Part shown: piece after piece, positions 20,213-49,325 of the stretch
Layout of the letters: every line of letters starts with the position of its first letter
Numbering within the stretch: the stretch's first letter is position 1
Origin: Eledone cirrhosa
Taxonomy: Eukaryota
Direction: 5' to 3'
NCBI GenBank assembly: GCA_964016885.1
Contig: OZ024745.1
Coordinates: 74,400,001-74,464,000, forward strand
DNA length: 64,000 nt
The notes under the pieces: generated by a model
The model's database searches: none
Told to the model about the DNA's origin: nothing
What the model saw: only the letters and a program-made list of their open reading frames with translations
Program-made: the position numbers and the translations under genes

Positions 20213-20658
20213 CTAAAAAAAATTTTTTTTTAGATATTTACAGACTTAAGCTACTCGATAATTCTTGCTTCATCTAAATACAACTTAAAGCCTTCGGTCG
20301 TCTTCTTAAATCATCCCAATTATAATAAATCAGTTCCCTAAAGAAATCTTTTCCATTTCAATCCAATTATTCCGCTTGTCCTACTTTGCAAAATATAACA
20401 CTTTCAATATGATAAAATCTAATTTTTATACAGCAGAGACATGAGTTGAAAATCTTTTATATAACTTTAATACTCTTAGTTTTGCTTCATTTATCTATTA
20501 CGTTTTCATTGTCCTCTGTACTTATTTAGTTTAATCTCTTGTCCTATTGTGCAATTCTTTCCATATATAAATATATATTGGCCACGCTGTACCTTGCTCA
20601 GACAGAACTGCAAATTTGGCAAGGATTTTTACAGCTGGATTCCCTTTCTAACACCAAC

Positions 20659-20705
<47 letters not shown>

Positions 20706-20736
20706 GTGGTTGGTGTTAGAAAGGGAATATATATAT

Positions 20737-22050
20737 AATGAAGGAAGTGTGGTAAGGAACCAGGTGGACCATAACGCACCAGAGTACTCGATACTTTGGG
20801 TAGTAGAGTGGGTAATAGGAAAAGGTTTAGGACCCCGACGGCAAAGCTCAAGCCGTTTTGATGGCTATTTCTGGACTAAATTCAATTTTTAGCGTGATAA
20901 TGAAATAGCCTAGCTTTTCGAGGGGTAATTCCATATATGGGCATGCGATAATCAGGTATTTCAAAAGGATTGGTCGAAGTTTCTTGTAAACACAGTTAAA
21001 TCTTTCATAGCAGTGGGTAGGGGGTGAGGGTGGCTGAACTTGCCTGTAGAACAATGAGGGAGTGGGTGAAGCTGGTCAGGCGTTAAAAGTAAATTCTATA
21101 CAGCAAATTCTAAGGAGTGTGGATGAAATAGGCTAGCTAGAAAGTAGGCGAAAATAGAATTATACAAGAATCTGAAAATTATAAAATTAAAAAAACTAGA
21201 GTCTAAAACAACTGTTATATTTTTAGCTGGTGTTGCATTTTCAGCCAATGTTATATAGAATTCACTGGGGTGGGGGTACTGAGGCTACAAAAGCCCAATG
21301 GGCTGCCTCAGGTAAGCAAAAGAGGAAAAAGGAGAAGGAAGAGGTGAGGGAGTGGAAAGAAGTGAGAGGAAGGGATAAAGGGAAAAAAGAAAAGAATTAC
21401 ATCTACCTATGTATGCTGGGTTTCCCCTATCTTGTTCGGCAAGTGGGGAAAAGAAGGATGTTACAGCCACTGTCTACCCACCCGGGTCATGAGGGGGTTT
21501 GAAGGCGAGGTAAGTCCTACGCAATTGGTGTTTACATGCGGTTACAAGTTCGTCTTTTTGTTTAGGAGTTGGTCCTTCGTAAACAGCATTTGTATTGTTT
21601 CCTCCGACCATAAGTTACACAGACGGCGTCCTCCCGATAGGAGTTAGCCCTGGAAAGTAAGCTCCAAGTAAGATGGTATGTGATGTTATTATCTTGGAGG
21701 TATCTTGGAGGTCCCAAACTCCGACAAAGCCTATATAGGATTAACTGCCTGTGACTTTAAGACCCGGCTCTACCAACACTGACATACGTTCAGAAACCCG
21801 GCCCAGCGACATGCCATTCCACTTTCAGGCCACATCTGGGACCTCCAAGCTAATAACATCACATACCATCTTACTTGGAGCTTACTTTCCAGGGCTAACT
21901 CCTACTCAGGAGGACGCTGTCCATGTAACTTATGCTCGGAGGAAATAATACAAATGCTGTTTATGAAGGACCCACTCCTAAACAAAAAAGATGAACTTGT
22001 AACCGCATACAAATACTGATTGCATAGGACTAACCTTGCCTTCAAATCCC
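20737..22050 (-). mobile_element. Penelope-like element copy B: minus-strand 3' end (20737-21715) plus inverted plus-strand GIY-YIG fragment (21716-22050)
   Basis: Homologous to 28030-29600; plus part reads DKAYIGLTACDFKTRLYQH*HTFRNP...HIWDLQANNITYHLTWSLLSRANSYSGGRCPCNLCSEE; 3' end abuts TA repeats. Confidence 0.9.
20830..20932 (-). ncRNA. Decayed type I hammerhead in the pLTR of copy B
   Basis: acccc-TCGAAAA-g..ggctatttc...gaaatagcc..c-AAAA-cggc...gccGTC-ggggt; the GAAA motif is mutated. Confidence 0.55.
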
Positions 22051-23269
22051 AAGAAACGCCATATGACACTACAGTGCCTATATGACATCATTGGGTGTTA
22101 TGGGACCATACCAAATACCTACCATAATTCTAAATGGACTTTGCTAGTATAAATTTAAATTCAACCAACATCAAATATCATTAGACTGTCTTAAGTCCAA
22201 GGAAGATACAAAAGCAGTGCAGGGGAAGAAAGGCTAGGTAGATATTTAGTGCAAGCTTTGGTGGTGGGAGATACAATAGGGATGATAAATAGAAGAGAGA
22301 CAATGCATTGAGTGGCATTGTTCAAAAGAACTGGTACAATTGTATTATTAATATAAGAAACAAAGAAACGTTTATGGGCTTAAAGGTTGTAACATGCTGG
22401 TGAGTGCATTTTTGACAATCAAATAGATGGCTCTATTTTGGATACAATTATCGGATGTCTACGTATGCAGGACCTAATAGAGCAAGATCCCTTTTAAAGT
22501 AAAGTCTGCAGGAAGATTTCAGCTCAATTATTGAGTGCTTATGGTGTTAATCTGTGTAGCTTCATAATCTCTATTTACAATTAGATGATTTTGACTATTG
22601 AGAATTAAGAATGCTTTCCAATGATATTGACTGCATACTGGCTATTAACCTTACCAACTTAGCCAACCAACATCAATTTTTAGTTAAAGTGTATAATGAC
22701 TATAAGAGTATTGAACAGAGAATATCACTGTGGACATGCATCTGAATGAATTCCATGATTGAAACATTGAATATAACTTGTTCAGCAATGAGTCAGAGAT
22801 GACCTGGGGTAGAAGATTAGTTCTTTTGATATTGAGACAAGTAGATGAGTTAATACAGAATATATCTAAATATCTAATTAGAAATGTACTATAGAAAAGA
22901 TACATCCCATTGATGATGGAATGAAAAAAAACAATCATTAAGCTGTCATTGAACTGATAAAGTTAATAGTGATGGTGTTGATGATTTTCAAATTGCTGAT
23001 TCATTCCAATTGCGATGGAGGAAGTAAAATGAAAAATGATAAAATTATTTCCTCTCGGTTTTCAATAAATCCAATAATTAGCCTAGTGACTTCTTTCAAT
23101 ATTTTATTCAGATCCAGAAGATATTCAGATAAATATCTATTGATTAGAAAAATGTATGTTTCAAATAGGGAGGTAAAGTGCTTTAACCCAAGTGATAGCA
23201 TTTAATTATTGATAGATTTAAATGGAAATAAGTCCTACTTCTTGCACTTGCGCTGCAAGCAGGTGTGAA

Positions 23270-27837: not shown

Positions 27838-28121
27838 ATGTGTGTGTGTGTGTGTATTCTGGCAGAATATACATATATGAGTTGATGATTAGTGATTCGG
27901 ACGATTTCTCTACAAAGGAATTAAATGTTACTTCCTATGTAGTTGAATGAAACATATGTAAATCAATTAAATAAGGTATTAGTGTATTGAGCCTTGGGGA
28001 TTATTATTTTTTGTGTATATATATATAAATAACGAAGGAAATGTGGTAAGGAACCAGGTGGACCATAACGCACCAAAGTACTCAATACTTAGGGTAGTAG
28101 AGTGGGTAATAGGAACGAGTA

Positions 28122-28225
28122 GGACGCCGACGGCTGAGCTCAAGCCGTTTCGACGGCTAATTCTGGACTAAATGAAAATTTTTATCCTGGTATATGAATA
28201 GCCGAGCTTCTCAGGGGGTAATTCC
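28122..28225 (-). ncRNA. Type I hammerhead-like ribozyme with variant core in the 3' pLTR
   Basis: Reverse complement of 30648-30751. Confidence 0.65.
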
Positions 28226-29296
28226 ATATATGGTAAAAGTGATTGTCACAAGGATTGGTCAAAAGTTTGTTGTTGAGACACATAATTCTATCATGGCAAT
28301 TTGTGGAAGGAAGGGGTAGCTGAACCTGCCAGTAGAAAAAAGAGGGAGAGGGAGTCGAGGAAACCCAGTCGTGCGTTGATAGTGCCAACTACAGCAGGGC
28401 AGGAGGTCAAGCAAGTATACTAGGGAGGGGGAGGAAGTCGAAACAAAAAGTAAATCAATATGGAGTAAATATATAGAAGAATACCAAGAATGTTAAAAAT
28501 ATTTAAAAAAAACAATTTCTGGTTACTATTTCCTAACGACAGTCATCAATTCTCTCACTGGTACTGCTAAACTATAGAAAAGTTTACTAGGTGGGACGGA
28601 ATTGTAAAGAGACCAATTTAAGAGTTAGTAGTAATCAACCAAGTATATCTTATGGTGACAGGTCAACAAGTGGGGGGGCCACAATACTAAAGAAACTACC
28701 ACGAAATAATAATTCAGAGTCCCGAAACTAATACGAAATAATTGCCTCCACCCTAGGCACAAGGCCAGCAACTACCCAGTGCAAAAAATAAACTAATACG
28801 AAATAATAATTCAGAATCCCGAAAATGAATACTAATACTATCTCTAAGGGTGCCGCTACGATACAAAAATTCTAGTGCAAACTACATAAATGCTCGTACG
28901 AGGTATATGAAAAATTTGATACGGAAAATTAATTCAGAATCACCCCCCCCCCCCCCCCCCCCCCTCCAAAAAAATACTGATATACGAGAAATTAAAGCAG
29001 TGATACCACTAAGAAATGTAGAAAGCACGGAAATGGGGCAGCCATCGGATAAGAAAGCAAGTATCTGGGGTCTATCACATCTGCTATAAAAAGCCGAGTC
29101 GGCCAATTCTATCATAGAATAGGGGATGGGGGGTGGGGGTACTGAGGCTACAAAGGACCGAGGGGCTACCTCGGGTGGGCGAGAAAATGAAAAGGACGAC
29201 GTCAAAGAAGGAGGACTGGGGAGGAAGGACTAGGAAGGGATGGGGTGAAGAAGCAAATATAGAGGAAACGATAAAAAGATATGAAAGATCTTACGT

Positions 29297-30361
29297 CTAC
29301 CTTTGCAAGCAGGGGTTACCCATTACAAAGTCGGCAAGTGGGGTGTTACAGCCCTTGTCTAAACCCCCCCCCCCCGGGTCATTATGGGGTTTGAGGGCGA
29401 GGTAAGTCCTACGCAATCTGTGTTTGCATGCAGTTACCAGTTCGTCTTTCTTGTTTAGGAGTTGGTCCGTCGAAAACAGCATTTGTAAAGTTTCCTCCGA
29501 GCATAAATTGCACGGACGGCGTCCTCCCGTGTAAGAGTTGGCTCTGGACAGTAAGCTCCAAGTGAGATCATAGGTGATATTGTTGTCTTTGAGGTCCCAG
29601 ATGTGGCCCAAAAGTGTGGTGGCGTGATGCCGGGCCGGGTTTCGGAAAGTATGTCTGTGTTGGTATAGTCGGGTCTTGAAGTAACATGCGGTTAATCCTA
29701 TATAAGCTTTGTTGGAGGTGTCCGTCCTCACGTTGCACTGGTAGATCACATTACGATCTCTGCATCTGTTGTCGAGGGGGAAAATGGATCCATCAGGACA
29801 GTTGCGCCTCCTGGTCGGCTCTCCACTGCTATTTAGGTTATTTCTTCCATAGGGGTTGAGTTTTTTGTTGTTAGAGGAGACGATGTTTTGTGCAAAGTTT
29901 GGTTTGGTGCTGTAGGAGAGTTTGATGGTATTTTTGTTGATTATGTTGTGGTAGCGGTGTTGTAGTGGGAAGTGTTTTTCGATGAGCCTAAAGAAGATTT
30001 TCCCGATAGGAGTTGTCGCCTCGGCGTTGTGAGGGGGATTGAACCATGTTACATTGCGTGAGCGGCGGTGTCGCCTGCTGGTTCCGCTAATGGAAGCTGG
30101 ACAGTAGGATATTTCCTCCCGGAAACCACTCCGCTTGAGGGCCTGGTTGTAATAAGGCGCATGTTCCTCGAATATCTGCTCATTGGCGGACAAACGAGAT
30201 ATGCGGAGAGAGATGTTTTTAACCAGGTTATTGGTGATGTTCCTAGGATGGTTTGACCGGCGGTGGATGTAGTGCAGGTTGTCATTGGGTTTCCTGTATG
30301 GGTAGTACAGATCATTATCGAGGTCAAGGGTAACGTCCAGGAAGTTTACTCGGGTCAGGGA
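29297..30361 (-). CDS. PLE ORF remnant: RT C-terminus/thumb plus GIY-YIG endonuclease (open frame, no start codon)
   Basis: VNFLDVTLDL..YRKPND, WFNPP, IKLSYS, NVIYQC...AYIGLT...FKTRLYQH, CNLCSEE, LNKKDEL..CKH; the frame continues upstream of the listed 298-aa ORF. Confidence 0.9.
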   Translation of the reverse strand, partial: SLTRVNFLDVTLDLDNDLYYPYRKPNDNLHYIHRRSNHPRNITNNLVKNISLRISRLSANEQIFEEHAPYYNQALKRSGFREEISYCPASISGTSRRHRRSRNVTWFNPPHNAEATTPIGKIFFRLIEKHFPLQHRYHNIINKNTIKLSYSTKPNFAQNIVSSNNKKLNPYGRNNLNSSGEPTRRRNCPDGSIFPLDNRCRDRNVIYQCNVRTDTSNKAYIGLTACYFKTRLYQHRHTFRNPARHHATTLLGHIWDLKDNNITYDLTWSLLSRANSYTGGRRPCNLCSEETLQMLFSTDQLLNKKDELVTACKHRLRRTYLALKPHNDPGGGGLDKGCNTPLADFVMGNPCLQR

Positions 30362-30647
30362 CGTTTTTTATATTTTTAACATTCTTGGTACTCTTCTATA
30401 TATTTACTCCATATTGATTTACTTTTTGTTTCGACTTCCTCCCCCCTCCCTAGTATACTTGCTTGACCTCCTGCCCTGCTGTAGTTGGCACTATCAACGC
30501 ACGACTGGGATTCCCCCACTCCCTCTCCCTCTTTCTTCTACTGGCAGGTTCAGCTACCCCTTCCTTCCACAAATTGCCATGATAGAATTATGTGTCTCAA
30601 CAACAAACTTTTGACCAATCCTTGTGACAATCACTTTTACCATATAT

Positions 30648-30751
30648 GGAATTACCCCCTGAGAAGCTCGGCTATTCATATACCAGGATAAAAATTTTCA
30701 TTTAGTCCAGAATTAGCCGTCGAAACGGCTTGAGCTCAGCCGTCGGCGTCC
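30648..30751 (+). ncRNA. Type I hammerhead-like ribozyme with variant core in the inverted pLTR
   Basis: acccc-CTGAGAA-G..cggcta...tagccg.C-GAAA-cggct tgagctc agcc-GTC-ggcgt; predicted cleavage after C30744. Confidence 0.65.
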
Positions 30752-30757
30752 TATTCG

Positions 30758-30829
<72 letters not shown>

Positions 30830-41634: not shown

Positions 41635-41640
41635 TATATA

Positions 41641-41757
41641 AAGTATTAAACTAGTAAGGCCATTATTCAACAGAGTACTCGATACTTGGGATAGTAGAGT
41701 GTGGCTGTAGCTGTCGAAACGGCAAGAGCTCAGCCGTCGGACCCCAACTCTTTCTAA
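41641..41757. mobile_element. Miniature PLE remnant in (TA)n: minus-strand 3' tip joined to a plus-strand half hammerhead
   Basis: agagtactcgatacttgggatagtagagtg matches 20781-20810; tagctgtcgaaacggc..gagctcagccgtcgg matches 30714-30746. Confidence 0.75.
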
Positions 41758-43627
41758 TATATATCTTTCTATATATATATGCAGTTTAGAATAGTGTCGG
41801 CAAGCCATTTCAGTGCTTCTGAGGCTGTTGAGAGGTCGGGAGGTATCCGAAGACCTGATCCGAATGCTTGCAACTCCACTAAAGACATATAGAGAGCGGA
41901 GGGCTATGTGGTCTCATCATAAACAGTCAATCACTGTATCATTTGCAATAATCTTCATTACCGGGTATTCTGTTACTGGTTTTAGTTTCGTGTTTTTAGT
42001 TAATCATCGCGACCCTAGTATGGTATTTTACTGATTGATTCAACACTGGTCCTGTTTCTAATATATATATATATATACACACGCGCGCACGGTGGACTTC
42101 TGAACGGTTTCCATCTACCAAATTCCACTCACAAATACCCGGTTATTTAGGGTCTTCAATTAAAATTAAGTTACCCTAAACATGATTATGCGACCTGTTA
42201 GTTTAGTGTGTGTGGATGTAGAGATACAGCAAGCGATCGTCACCATGTGCCGCGCCGTGGGGGTGAACCGGAACCACATGGTACCTAAGAGAATTTAAGA
42301 CATGTTGCATTTATAGATCAATCTATTTTTGTCAAGATTTCTAAACTTTCCTTCTGGTGATTTTTCTATTATGACTTCAAATCAAAAGGATTTCCATACA
42401 AACAGTCGAAAGTAAATACACTGTATTTACTTATTTAATAATAATAATTTTCGTTTTTATCTTTCTTTTTTTCATATTTATGTAATCATTAATAGCTTTT
42501 AAGCCAACTTTGTAAATAAAACTTACATTGTCATAAACGGGTATATTTTTTTAATAGGATTTTCCATAGGTATATTTTTGAAGGTGTGAATTACGATTAT
42601 GTTAAATTTGAAAAAAGAAAAATATTTTATTTTTATAATTTTCATCATTATATACTTTCTGTCTGTAGTTGTTAGTAGCTAAACTTAAACTTGGGGATTT
42701 TCTTTTAACTTCCAATTTCGTTTTGACAAGATAATGTCGGGTTTTCTATGAGAATTAAATGTCACTTCTATAGCTAGAAATGTGGGCTCGACATTAAATG
42801 TTAAATCACCTTTGAAAACATATCGCCACAAAATTCTATTAAAAATATACATTAAGAAAGTCGGGTTGTGACACTAGTTACGCTAAAAATAAAACATTTA
42901 GGGACTTCAATTGCAATTAATTCAAGCTACACTCAATGTGATTCTACGACCTGTTAGTGTAGTGTGTCTAGAGAAAACGTGGAGACAGCGGAGCAACAGA
43001 GTAGGTGCCTGTCACCTGCATAGTTTTCCGTGTGATAGTAACGGCCAGTGTGTATATAATGCAATAACAGGAGAGAAAAGTTACAGATTTATATGTGCTT
43101 GGTTGACCAGTGTTGAAGTTATGGTATTAAACAACCATTGAACAGGTGAACGACAGATGACGAACACAAGACCAAAATAAAAACAACAACGATATATATA
43201 TATATATATATATATATAGTGTGTGTGTGTAAAAAGTAAACAGAAATAACAAAGCAAACGACACAGTACGTTGAAGAAATATATTAGTTTAACGCTTGAA
43301 GTAACAGGAAAATAGGCTTTATATATATAATGTGTGTGTCCGTGTCCCGGGTTCAATTGGGGGTAACCACAATAAGGTACTCAATTTATAGTAGAGTATA
43401 TATATACATTACTATGCATACACACAGAACAAACCCCAAAACATGGGTTAAATAAATGTCCTCTATTATTCTGTCCACCGAACCGGCGACCTAAATTCCT
43501 CGTTGAGTGAGAAAAAAAGAATATGAATAATTAGAACCCAATGGTTTTATATTATTTAGTGGTTGTTGTAGTGATGTTGATGGTATGATTTGGTCTGGAC
43601 TGTTCTGCTGTCTACTGTTTCACATAC

Positions 43628-48639: not shown

Positions 48640-49325
48640 ATAATTGTTTCTACTTTTGGCACAAGGCCACCAAATCCCCAGTACATTACTGGTACTTTAT
48701 TTTATCGACCCCGTAACGATGAAAGGCAAAGTTAACCCCGGCGGGATTTGAACTCGGACCGTAAAGGGACGTAACTGTGCTGGAAAGCATGGCGTCCGAC
48801 TCTCTACCAATACTGCAAATCCAATATAATAATGGTTTCTTATTTAGGCAGAAGGCCAGCAATGGGGGGGGGGGTCGATGAAATTGAACCAGTGTGTGAC
48901 TGGTACTTTATTTTATCGACCCCGTAAGGATGAAAGGCAAAGTTAACCTCGGCGGGATTTGAACTCGGATCATAAAGGGCAAAGCATGGCGTCTGACCCT
49001 CTACAGATACTGCCAATCCAACGCACTATAATAATTGTTTCTACTTTTGGCACAAGGCCAGCAATTATCCCAGTGCATTACTGGTACTTTATTTTATCGA
49101 CCCCGTAAGGATGAAAGGCAAAGTTAATAATTGTTTCTACGTTTGGCACAAGGCCAGCAATTACCCAGTGCATTACTGGTACTTAATTTTATCGACTCTA
49201 TAAGGATGAAAGGCAAAGTTAACCTCGGCGGAATTTGAACTCAGAATGGCAAGGACCGTAACTCTATACGTCAAAGCATGGCGTCCGGCCCTCTACCGAT
49301 ACTGCCAATCCAAAGGCAAAGTTAA
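48640..49325 (-). mobile_element. Head-to-tail array of about 4-5 Meta/MESC-like SINE units
   Basis: Repeated reverse complements of the 14.8-kb unit. Confidence 0.85.

Follow-up and report, generated by a model that had tools for sequence, protein, structure and literature searches.

Loss and return of the 3-8 core pair in the long-stem hammerhead motif of a Hydra-like Penelope-like element from Eledone cirrhosa

We analyzed a 64,000-nucleotide stretch of the Eledone cirrhosa genome (assembly GCA_964016885.1, contig OZ024745.1, positions 74,400,001 to 74,464,000, forward strand; hereafter the window) that contains a Penelope-like element (PLE) inserted in a (TA)n microsatellite. We consider it probable that this is a 5′-truncated, inverted-repeat PLE of the Hydra clade whose pseudo-long terminal repeat (pLTR) bears a type I hammerhead motif in which stem II is long, that the family as a whole has a U3-A8 core, that the C3·A8 core of the window's subfamily would cut weakly or not at all, and that copying likely proceeds from uncut tandem RNA. 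Across the subfamilies, the core passed from U3 to C3 (with G7) and back to U3. This lineage forms a natural series of close subfamilies in which the catalytic core goes from paired to mismatched to re-paired with the rest of the fold conserved, and it bears on the question whether PLE amplification can go on once the ribozyme is disabled, or whether an arrangement not yet described is tolerated in the core. The class of element, its hammerheads and the U3-A8 variant are already known; searches of papers, as distinct from the repeat libraries Dfam and Repbase, found neither the long stem II arm, nor the fixed-then-reverted C3·A8, nor the family itself in print. The paper that describes the Hydra clade asks whether hammerheads merely parasitise PLEs (PMC8557442), and the long stem II together with the fixed-then-reverted mismatch offers a small but direct test of the role of PLE hammerheads.

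Long stem II in a type I hammerhead motif

On the minus strand of the window, stem I (ACCCC/GG(C/G)GT) pairs positions 28219-28215 with 28128-28124, and the core reads CUGAGAA, in which C3 (28214) forms a mismatch with A8. The stem II arm spans 56 nt, with a loop of ~32 nt, and is followed by GAAA; the 6-bp stem III (ACGGCT/AGCCGT) carries the palindromic TGAGCTCA (GAGCUC palindrome), and a GUC cleavage site is present. The family also has the open stem I, G10.1-C11.1 and A15.1-U16.1 of a type I three-way junction. These elements bear out the first-pass annotation, made from the letters of the window, which had read the repeat as a type I hammerhead whose stem II is atypically long. That annotation had placed the cleavage site at C30744, where a GUC with C17 does occur; this position lies in the inverted arm, however, and the sense-strand C17 is C28129 (minus strand). 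A private G>C at 28126 gives stem I GGCGT only in the two arms of the window insertion (2/41), the usual state being GGGGT. Because both arms carry the same private change, the template of the window element may have had a second defect, with gene conversion between the arms as an alternative source.

We performed exact matching of a 21-nt family pattern (stem I, NNGANNAG and the start of stem II) across the genome and obtained 6,361 matches versus 0 for the reversed control, a count of motifs rather than insertions that undercounts old families. The motif is therefore not a product of chance. When 45 copies drawn from nine clusters were aligned, 94% of cells paired under the hammerhead structure versus 31-51% when the partners were slid, and the majority sequences of the four oldest clusters folded best as the full three-way junction. 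The majority sequence of the window's subfamily folded best into a competing hairpin instead; for the window copy, the constrained hammerhead fold lay ~8 kcal/mol above the ensemble. Both favour this hairpin because AGCCGU occurs twice. Rfam gave no hammerhead match in the window, and since canonical hammerheads of two Hydra-like loci (L272 and L279) escaped it as well, this result is uninformative on the variant.

The core changed from U3 to C3 and back

The U3-A8 core, TTGANAAG, accounted for 4,584 of the 6,361 exact matches and is the family norm. Position N7 is T, A, C or G depending on the U3 subfamily, which fixes the canonical register, with U3-A8 and G10.1-C11.1 as pairs. A C3 core was found in 1,567 matches; among the first 100 of these listed, 94 were CTGAGAAG, 1 had G8 and 5 were without G7. 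The U3/G7 intermediate with the older flank had just 36 genome matches. In 41 aligned best-matching arms, which were chosen for their likeness to the window, 40 had C3, so the CUGAGAA of the window is a subfamily trait and not decay. The initial annotation had described the cores CTGAGAA and TCGAAAA (the latter in a second copy, copy B) as each one change from TTGARAA, the compensatory variant with a U3-A8 pair. The U3-A8 pairing holds for the family as a whole, but CTGAGAA is the fixed state of the window's subfamily, whose majority sequence cannot form a Watson-Crick 3-8 pair (C3·A8), and TCGAAAA is private to its copy. Family-wide covariation of positions 3 and 7 (C-G versus U-A) was also considered and was ruled out by the TTGATAAG, TTGACAAG and TTGAGAAG subfamilies.

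We built two trees, one from the endonuclease region (46 rows) and one from the pLTR (36 rows) with positions 3 and 7 masked and the oldest family as outgroup. In both, the young U3 subfamilies were nested inside a C3 grade (support 100/98 and 100/99), and both gave the same ladder: TTGATAAG and TTGAAAAG were oldest, followed by TTGACAAG, then by CTGAGAAG (three subfamilies), and finally by TTGAGAAG and TTGATAAG. Outside CpG, the youngest subfamily, TTGAGAAG-AT, had diverged by 0.9%, the C3 groups by 3-4% and the oldest by 7-8%; the root of this history rests on these copy ages and the pLTR outgroup. An approximately unbiased (AU) test on 44 rows, from which two isolated C3 copies without G7 were omitted, rejected the C3 rows as a single clade (p = 3e-63). 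Contigs from three runs of unrecorded kind carry no information on ends; two contigs from a second organism have U3 and are too few to use.

The fold was conserved while the mismatch was fixed

Change was counted between the majority sequences of ten subfamilies, over nine steps. Core and stems changed at 5/387 position-steps, versus 271/2,152 in loop II and the flanks, the downstream flank containing some TA noise. With 3 and 7 set aside, none of the 13 remaining core positions changed (0/117), and conserved core U4, G5, A6, A9, G12, A13, A14 and H17 were kept; N7 changed in 4 of the 9 steps. Within the C3 stretch too, core and stems were unchanged (0/43 versus 37/251, p = 0.003). The GAGCUC palindrome was present in the majority sequence of every subfamily. 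The best reading of these counts is that the hammerhead fold stayed under selection during the C3 period.

Copies read through the cleavage site

To see where copies begin, we used 30 near-full-length loci found with the 5′ region, which represent 27 events because L366-L369 have one common junction. At 19 loci the copy extended upstream through the cleavage site and at 11 it started downstream (+8 to +97), with no pile-up of 5′ junctions at the site itself (0/30 loci within 5 nt). Insertion ends fell ~20 and ~99 nt downstream of C17. Because copies read through and none starts at the site, the template spans an intact junction, as uncleaved tandem RNA or a circle would.

The core CUGAGAAG (C3·A8) is predicted to be weak or dead, and we infer that subfamilies with this mismatch had little or no cleavage yet were still amplified. 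The GIY-YIG domain would nick (TA)n, and the reverse transcriptase (RT) would prime on the RNA at the +20 and +99 sites; since such priming would itself yield the tail and the inverted arm, cleavage would not be needed for each insertion. The fold may have been kept for low or protein-assisted cleavage, either for transcript processing or for damping, or as a structure recognised by the PLE protein near the priming sites, and the return to U3 would have restored the 3-8 pair.

A similar scheme has been described for the Poseidon element PAc of Anolis (Frangieh et al. 2024, PMC11167929), in which two internal RT starts define the tail in vitro, targets are AT-rich, and RNA that is unprocessed and uncleaved is the main substrate. 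Single mutants of positions 3 and 8 in that hammerhead (C3G, G8C) lost cleavage with insertion unchanged in vitro, so a 3-8 mismatch does not block insertion there either. Poseidon belongs to a different clade and those mutants were engineered, whereas here the mismatch persisted in a natural lineage while several of its subfamilies amplified. Another hammerhead has been scanned by pairwise mutation, and within its CUGA region every single or double mutant scored low except the G:C swap (PMC9901934).

Weighing the interpretations

Several observations count against the proposal that a C3·A8 core cut weakly or not at all and that uncut tandem RNA was copied. Copies with U3 also read through (L350, L372 and L375), and a cleaved and re-ligated circle would yield read-through copies as well, so read-through cannot separate active from inactive cores. 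Weak or absent cutting by C3·A8 is itself a prediction for the members of this family, and the pairwise scan is not a sensitive test of it, because the U3-A8 double mutant scored low in that scan too (PMC9901934). That the remaining core was invariant during the fixation of C3·A8 is compatible with retained activity and equally with a role other than catalysis. Further points concern the fold and its history: midway along the series, the ages of subfamilies overlap; the window copy is not best folded as a hammerhead (z = 0.07); three stem II pairs vary on both sides, mostly in one family split, and shuffles give 3.1; and one of these three pairs is forced by the search pattern, though it is also present in four loci found by the 5′ half alone (L176, L223, L224 and L232). 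RNAalifold on the same alignment did not recover the hammerhead and returned another weak structure. Finally, the Hydra assignment was made from motifs compared by eye.

It is possible, though we think rather unlikely, that the C3·A8 core, still in the canonical register, has useful cleavage activity in vivo because C and A form a wobble, because the PLE protein assists or because two RNAs dimerise at the palindromic loop III. Core and stems did remain under purifying selection through the C3 period, the GAGCUC palindrome is kept throughout, and one Poseidon hammerhead cleaves only with its protein (PMC11167929). In that same system, however, the C3G and G8C single mutants lost cleavage, and the window's subfamily prefers the competing hairpin. 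We judge it unlikely, too, that the register shifted such that C3 pairs with G7, which would serve as G8 in a core without N7, the second A becoming an extra base before G10.1; the U3-A8 core would then have given way to an active shifted core, kept through several amplifying subfamilies and later switched back. C3 and G7 arise on the same branch (TTGACAAG to CTGAGAAG), G7 was found in 95 of the first 100 C3 matches listed (1,567 in total), the U3/G7 intermediate is rare, the remaining core is conserved, and PLE hammerheads commonly have one base more between 9 and 10.1 (PMC4209133). However, N7 changes often in this lineage, so G7 would have a roughly 1-in-4 chance of arising anyway, and the lineage returned to U3 yet kept G7. 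Pairwise mutagenesis of this region in another hammerhead also gave no rescue apart from the G:C swap, and a literature search for hammerheads without N7 found nothing relevant.

Least probable, in our view, is that no subfamily cleaves and that the motif is a former hammerhead now serving only in protein binding or priming. The lack of copies starting at the cleavage site and the tolerance of C3·A8 would fit such a loss, as would the low score of the U3-A8 double mutant in the one scan and the often weak activity of PLE hammerheads in vitro (PMC4209133). Against it, the reversion restored exactly the 3-8 pair, and invariance at 13 other core positions over nine subfamily steps with four changes at N7 is the pattern of a hammerhead; natural U3-A8 cores have been reported and such ribozymes are active in vitro (Perreault 2011, PMC3088659).

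Clade assignment and comparison with known elements

The Hydra clade has been defined by RWK, a change of DKG to DKT, a CxCx5C linker, CxxC and CxH, and no CCHH (PMC8557442, section 11). The open reading frame (ORF) remnant in the window (30367 to 29297, minus strand, 356 aa) contains WFNPP, IKLSYS, VIY...AYIG, CNLC and CKH; its endonuclease has CxxC-E-N-CxH and no CCHH, and the CNC codons of the linker are disturbed in this copy. A near-complete relative, L378, has two hammerheads separated by 3,533 nt and, between them, an intact 724-aa ORF comprising an RT with YRDD plus a GIY-YIG domain at the C terminus (VIY..AYIG). Its motifs, matched by eye to the Hydra rows of Fig. S7 of PMC8557442, are RWR (RLRWRTFF; this variant is also found among homologues), DKT (SDKTGNLY), WFNPP, IKLSYS, a CxCx5C linker (CNCPDGSIC) and an endonuclease with CxxC, E, N and CxH (CNLCSEE..LLNK..ACKH), with no CCHH. 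By this motif set, the element would be placed in the Hydra clade; (TA)n lies on both sides of it, and (TA)n insertion was also seen for other copies of the family. The first-pass description of a Hydra-type PLE in (TA)n with a C-terminal GIY-YIG domain agrees with these motifs. In a homologue search, 1,974 of 8,000 scored candidate proteins matched, and identity among the best 120 was 37-50%; the element proteins gave no useful match in sequence searches of Pfam and PDB. In hammerhead orientation, L125 (202-615) and L138 (12-646) carry ORFs with WFSPPF and CSCRKPEAC that are 29-37% identical and lie just upstream of short old-family copies; these ORFs look like a second, distant Hydra family.

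Hydra elements had been described in the first-pass annotation as lacking canonical hammerheads. This is contradicted by Craig et al. (2021, PMC8557442), who report canonical hammerheads as readily detected and universally present in Hydra and name Naiad and most Chlamys as the clades without them. The Hydra hammerheads in their File S2, which include an Octopus Hydra family, are all CTGANGA. Hydra, including Hydra-1_Obim, shares with our family a C-terminal GIY-YIG domain without CCHH, RWK/RWR, DKT, CxCx5C, CxxC and CxH. Both also target (TA)n, leave truncated copies with inverted parts and have a pLTR with a type I hammerhead in sense orientation. Hydra-1_Obim is a different family, with WFAPHF where ours has WFNPPH (by eye) and a unit of <3 kb compared with 3.5 kb. 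File S2 hammerheads are C3-G8 with short stem II arms, a 3-4-bp stem III and tiny loops, whereas those described here are U3-A8 or C3·A8 with a 56-nt stem II, a 5-6-bp stem III and a 7-9-nt loop. A canonical CUGANGA hammerhead is not found in the pLTR of this family (core UUGANAA or CUGAGAA); it is the protein, not the hammerhead, that defines the Hydra clade.

PLE hammerheads with a U3-A8 core, with an enlarged helix II and with one additional base between 9 and 10.1 are known (Cervera and De la Peña 2014, PMC4209133). The Cercyon PLEs of Schistosoma in that study resemble our family in having U3-A8 in the pseudo-LTR, an enlarged helix II, a short helix I, G10.1-C11.1 and a palindromic loop III. 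Their hammerheads are minimal, are proposed to act as dimers and have a 7-8-bp helix II, whereas in ours stem III is full and the stem II arm is much longer; the sections of that study covered here report no fixed C3·A8 subfamily.

We also performed a descriptor survey of 77 metagenomic Hydra-like loci (from the best 80 of 417 stretches kept). A sense hammerhead was found in 27 and an antisense one in 1, compared with 0-1 in shuffles; 25 of the 27 sense cores were C3-G8, 2 were U3-A8 and 0 were C3·A8. The stem II span was 14-30 nt in 26 credible hammerheads, versus 56 nt in the window. One U3-A8 descriptor match with a 56-nt span (L329) was dropped, as by eye it reads as RT coding sequence. 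A clean U3-A8 hammerhead (TTGATAA), its stem II short, lies at ~1768 of the metagenome contig L335, and because L335 is a Hydra-like element, U3-A8 recurs in the clade. A covariance model of our family gave 0 matches in the 77 loci. Descriptors built on CUGANGA with short stem II limits would overlook thousands of genomic hammerhead motifs.

Anatomy of the insertion

The features of the element and of two further copies in the window are collected in Table 1. Positions 28114-28508 and 30364-30759 form an inverted repeat of ~98% identity; the inverted arm, on the 5′ side of the element, duplicates the ~395 nt that immediately precede the tail and stops 15 nt past the cleavage site, where the usual end in the family is at ~+20. 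The main arm ends at +99, which we infer to be the start of reverse transcription, and in longer copies the tail runs on into the next unit, reaching its 5′ region and start codon. Copies of this family are usually truncated and have an inverted arm, as is the case in PLEs generally (PMC8557442, Fig. 2 legend).

Table 1. Features of the element and of two further copies, in window coordinates
Feature	Position	Strand	Basis
(TA)n target microsatellite at the 3′ end of the element	28016..28029	.	Sequence
Tail, 79 nt, +20 to +99 past the cleavage site	28030..28108	-	Copy comparison
Sense type I hammerhead motif, C17 = 28129	28124..28219	-	Sequence and aligned copies
Long 3′ untranslated region, common to other subfamily copies	28220..29296	-	Copy comparison
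5′-truncated ORF, 356 aa: RT end, thumb, linker and C-terminal GIY-YIG endonuclease	29297..30367	-	Translation, motifs
Inverted pseudo-LTR copy, hammerhead at 30654-30749 (C17 = 30744)	30364..30759	+	Self-comparison
(TA)n at the opposite end of the insertion	30760..30820	.	Sequence
Copy B: older-subfamily hammerhead, usual core TTGAAAAG (U3-A8), private TCGA and GAAA to AAAA	20826..20930	-	Sequence, cluster
Copy C: short truncated-and-inverted insertion, tail (-) and hammerhead 3′ half (+)	41640..41760	.	Sequence

The 3′ untranslated region (UTR), which extends ~1.1 kb between the ORF remnant and the hammerhead motif, contains a 47-nt piece (28737-28783, plus strand) that matches, at 83-85% identity, the end of a short repeat that is abundant and dispersed, with copies at 37162-37116, 49126-49172, 49030-49077 and 15026-14979. 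Because copy L038 also carries this piece, it seems to have been captured by the source element. The dispersed short repeats of the window are SINE-like and may be octopus short interspersed nuclear elements (SINEs).

Other copies

Nine of the ten members of copy B's cluster have TTGAAAAG, in keeping with its TCGAAAA being private. The insertion that holds copy B (20735-22051) is truncated and includes an inverted piece of the endonuclease region (21719-22051) and adjoins an inverted repeat around (TA)n at 20641-20726. At 41.7 kb, where a third diverged hammerhead copy had been noted, GAAA, stem III and GUC are present; stem I 5′ arm, the 5′ half of the core and the stem II 5′ arm are absent, and since only the 3′ half is joined to an inverted tail, copy C is not a third hammerhead. 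Many insertions of ~150 nt (L092-L120, and also 41640-41760) likewise consist of a tail and an inverted hammerhead 3′ half, with breakpoints in or beside stem II. In run X1 (kind unrecorded), summed contig depth was >10x higher on the tail side of stem II. The breakpoints and this step in depth suggest RT stalling or template switching at the long stem II. At two sites, L366-L369 (G000:C20) and G000:C2:338.34-338.47 Mb, four near-identical copies occur at regular spacing (~15-30 kb and ~44 kb), and these are probably tandem segmental duplications.

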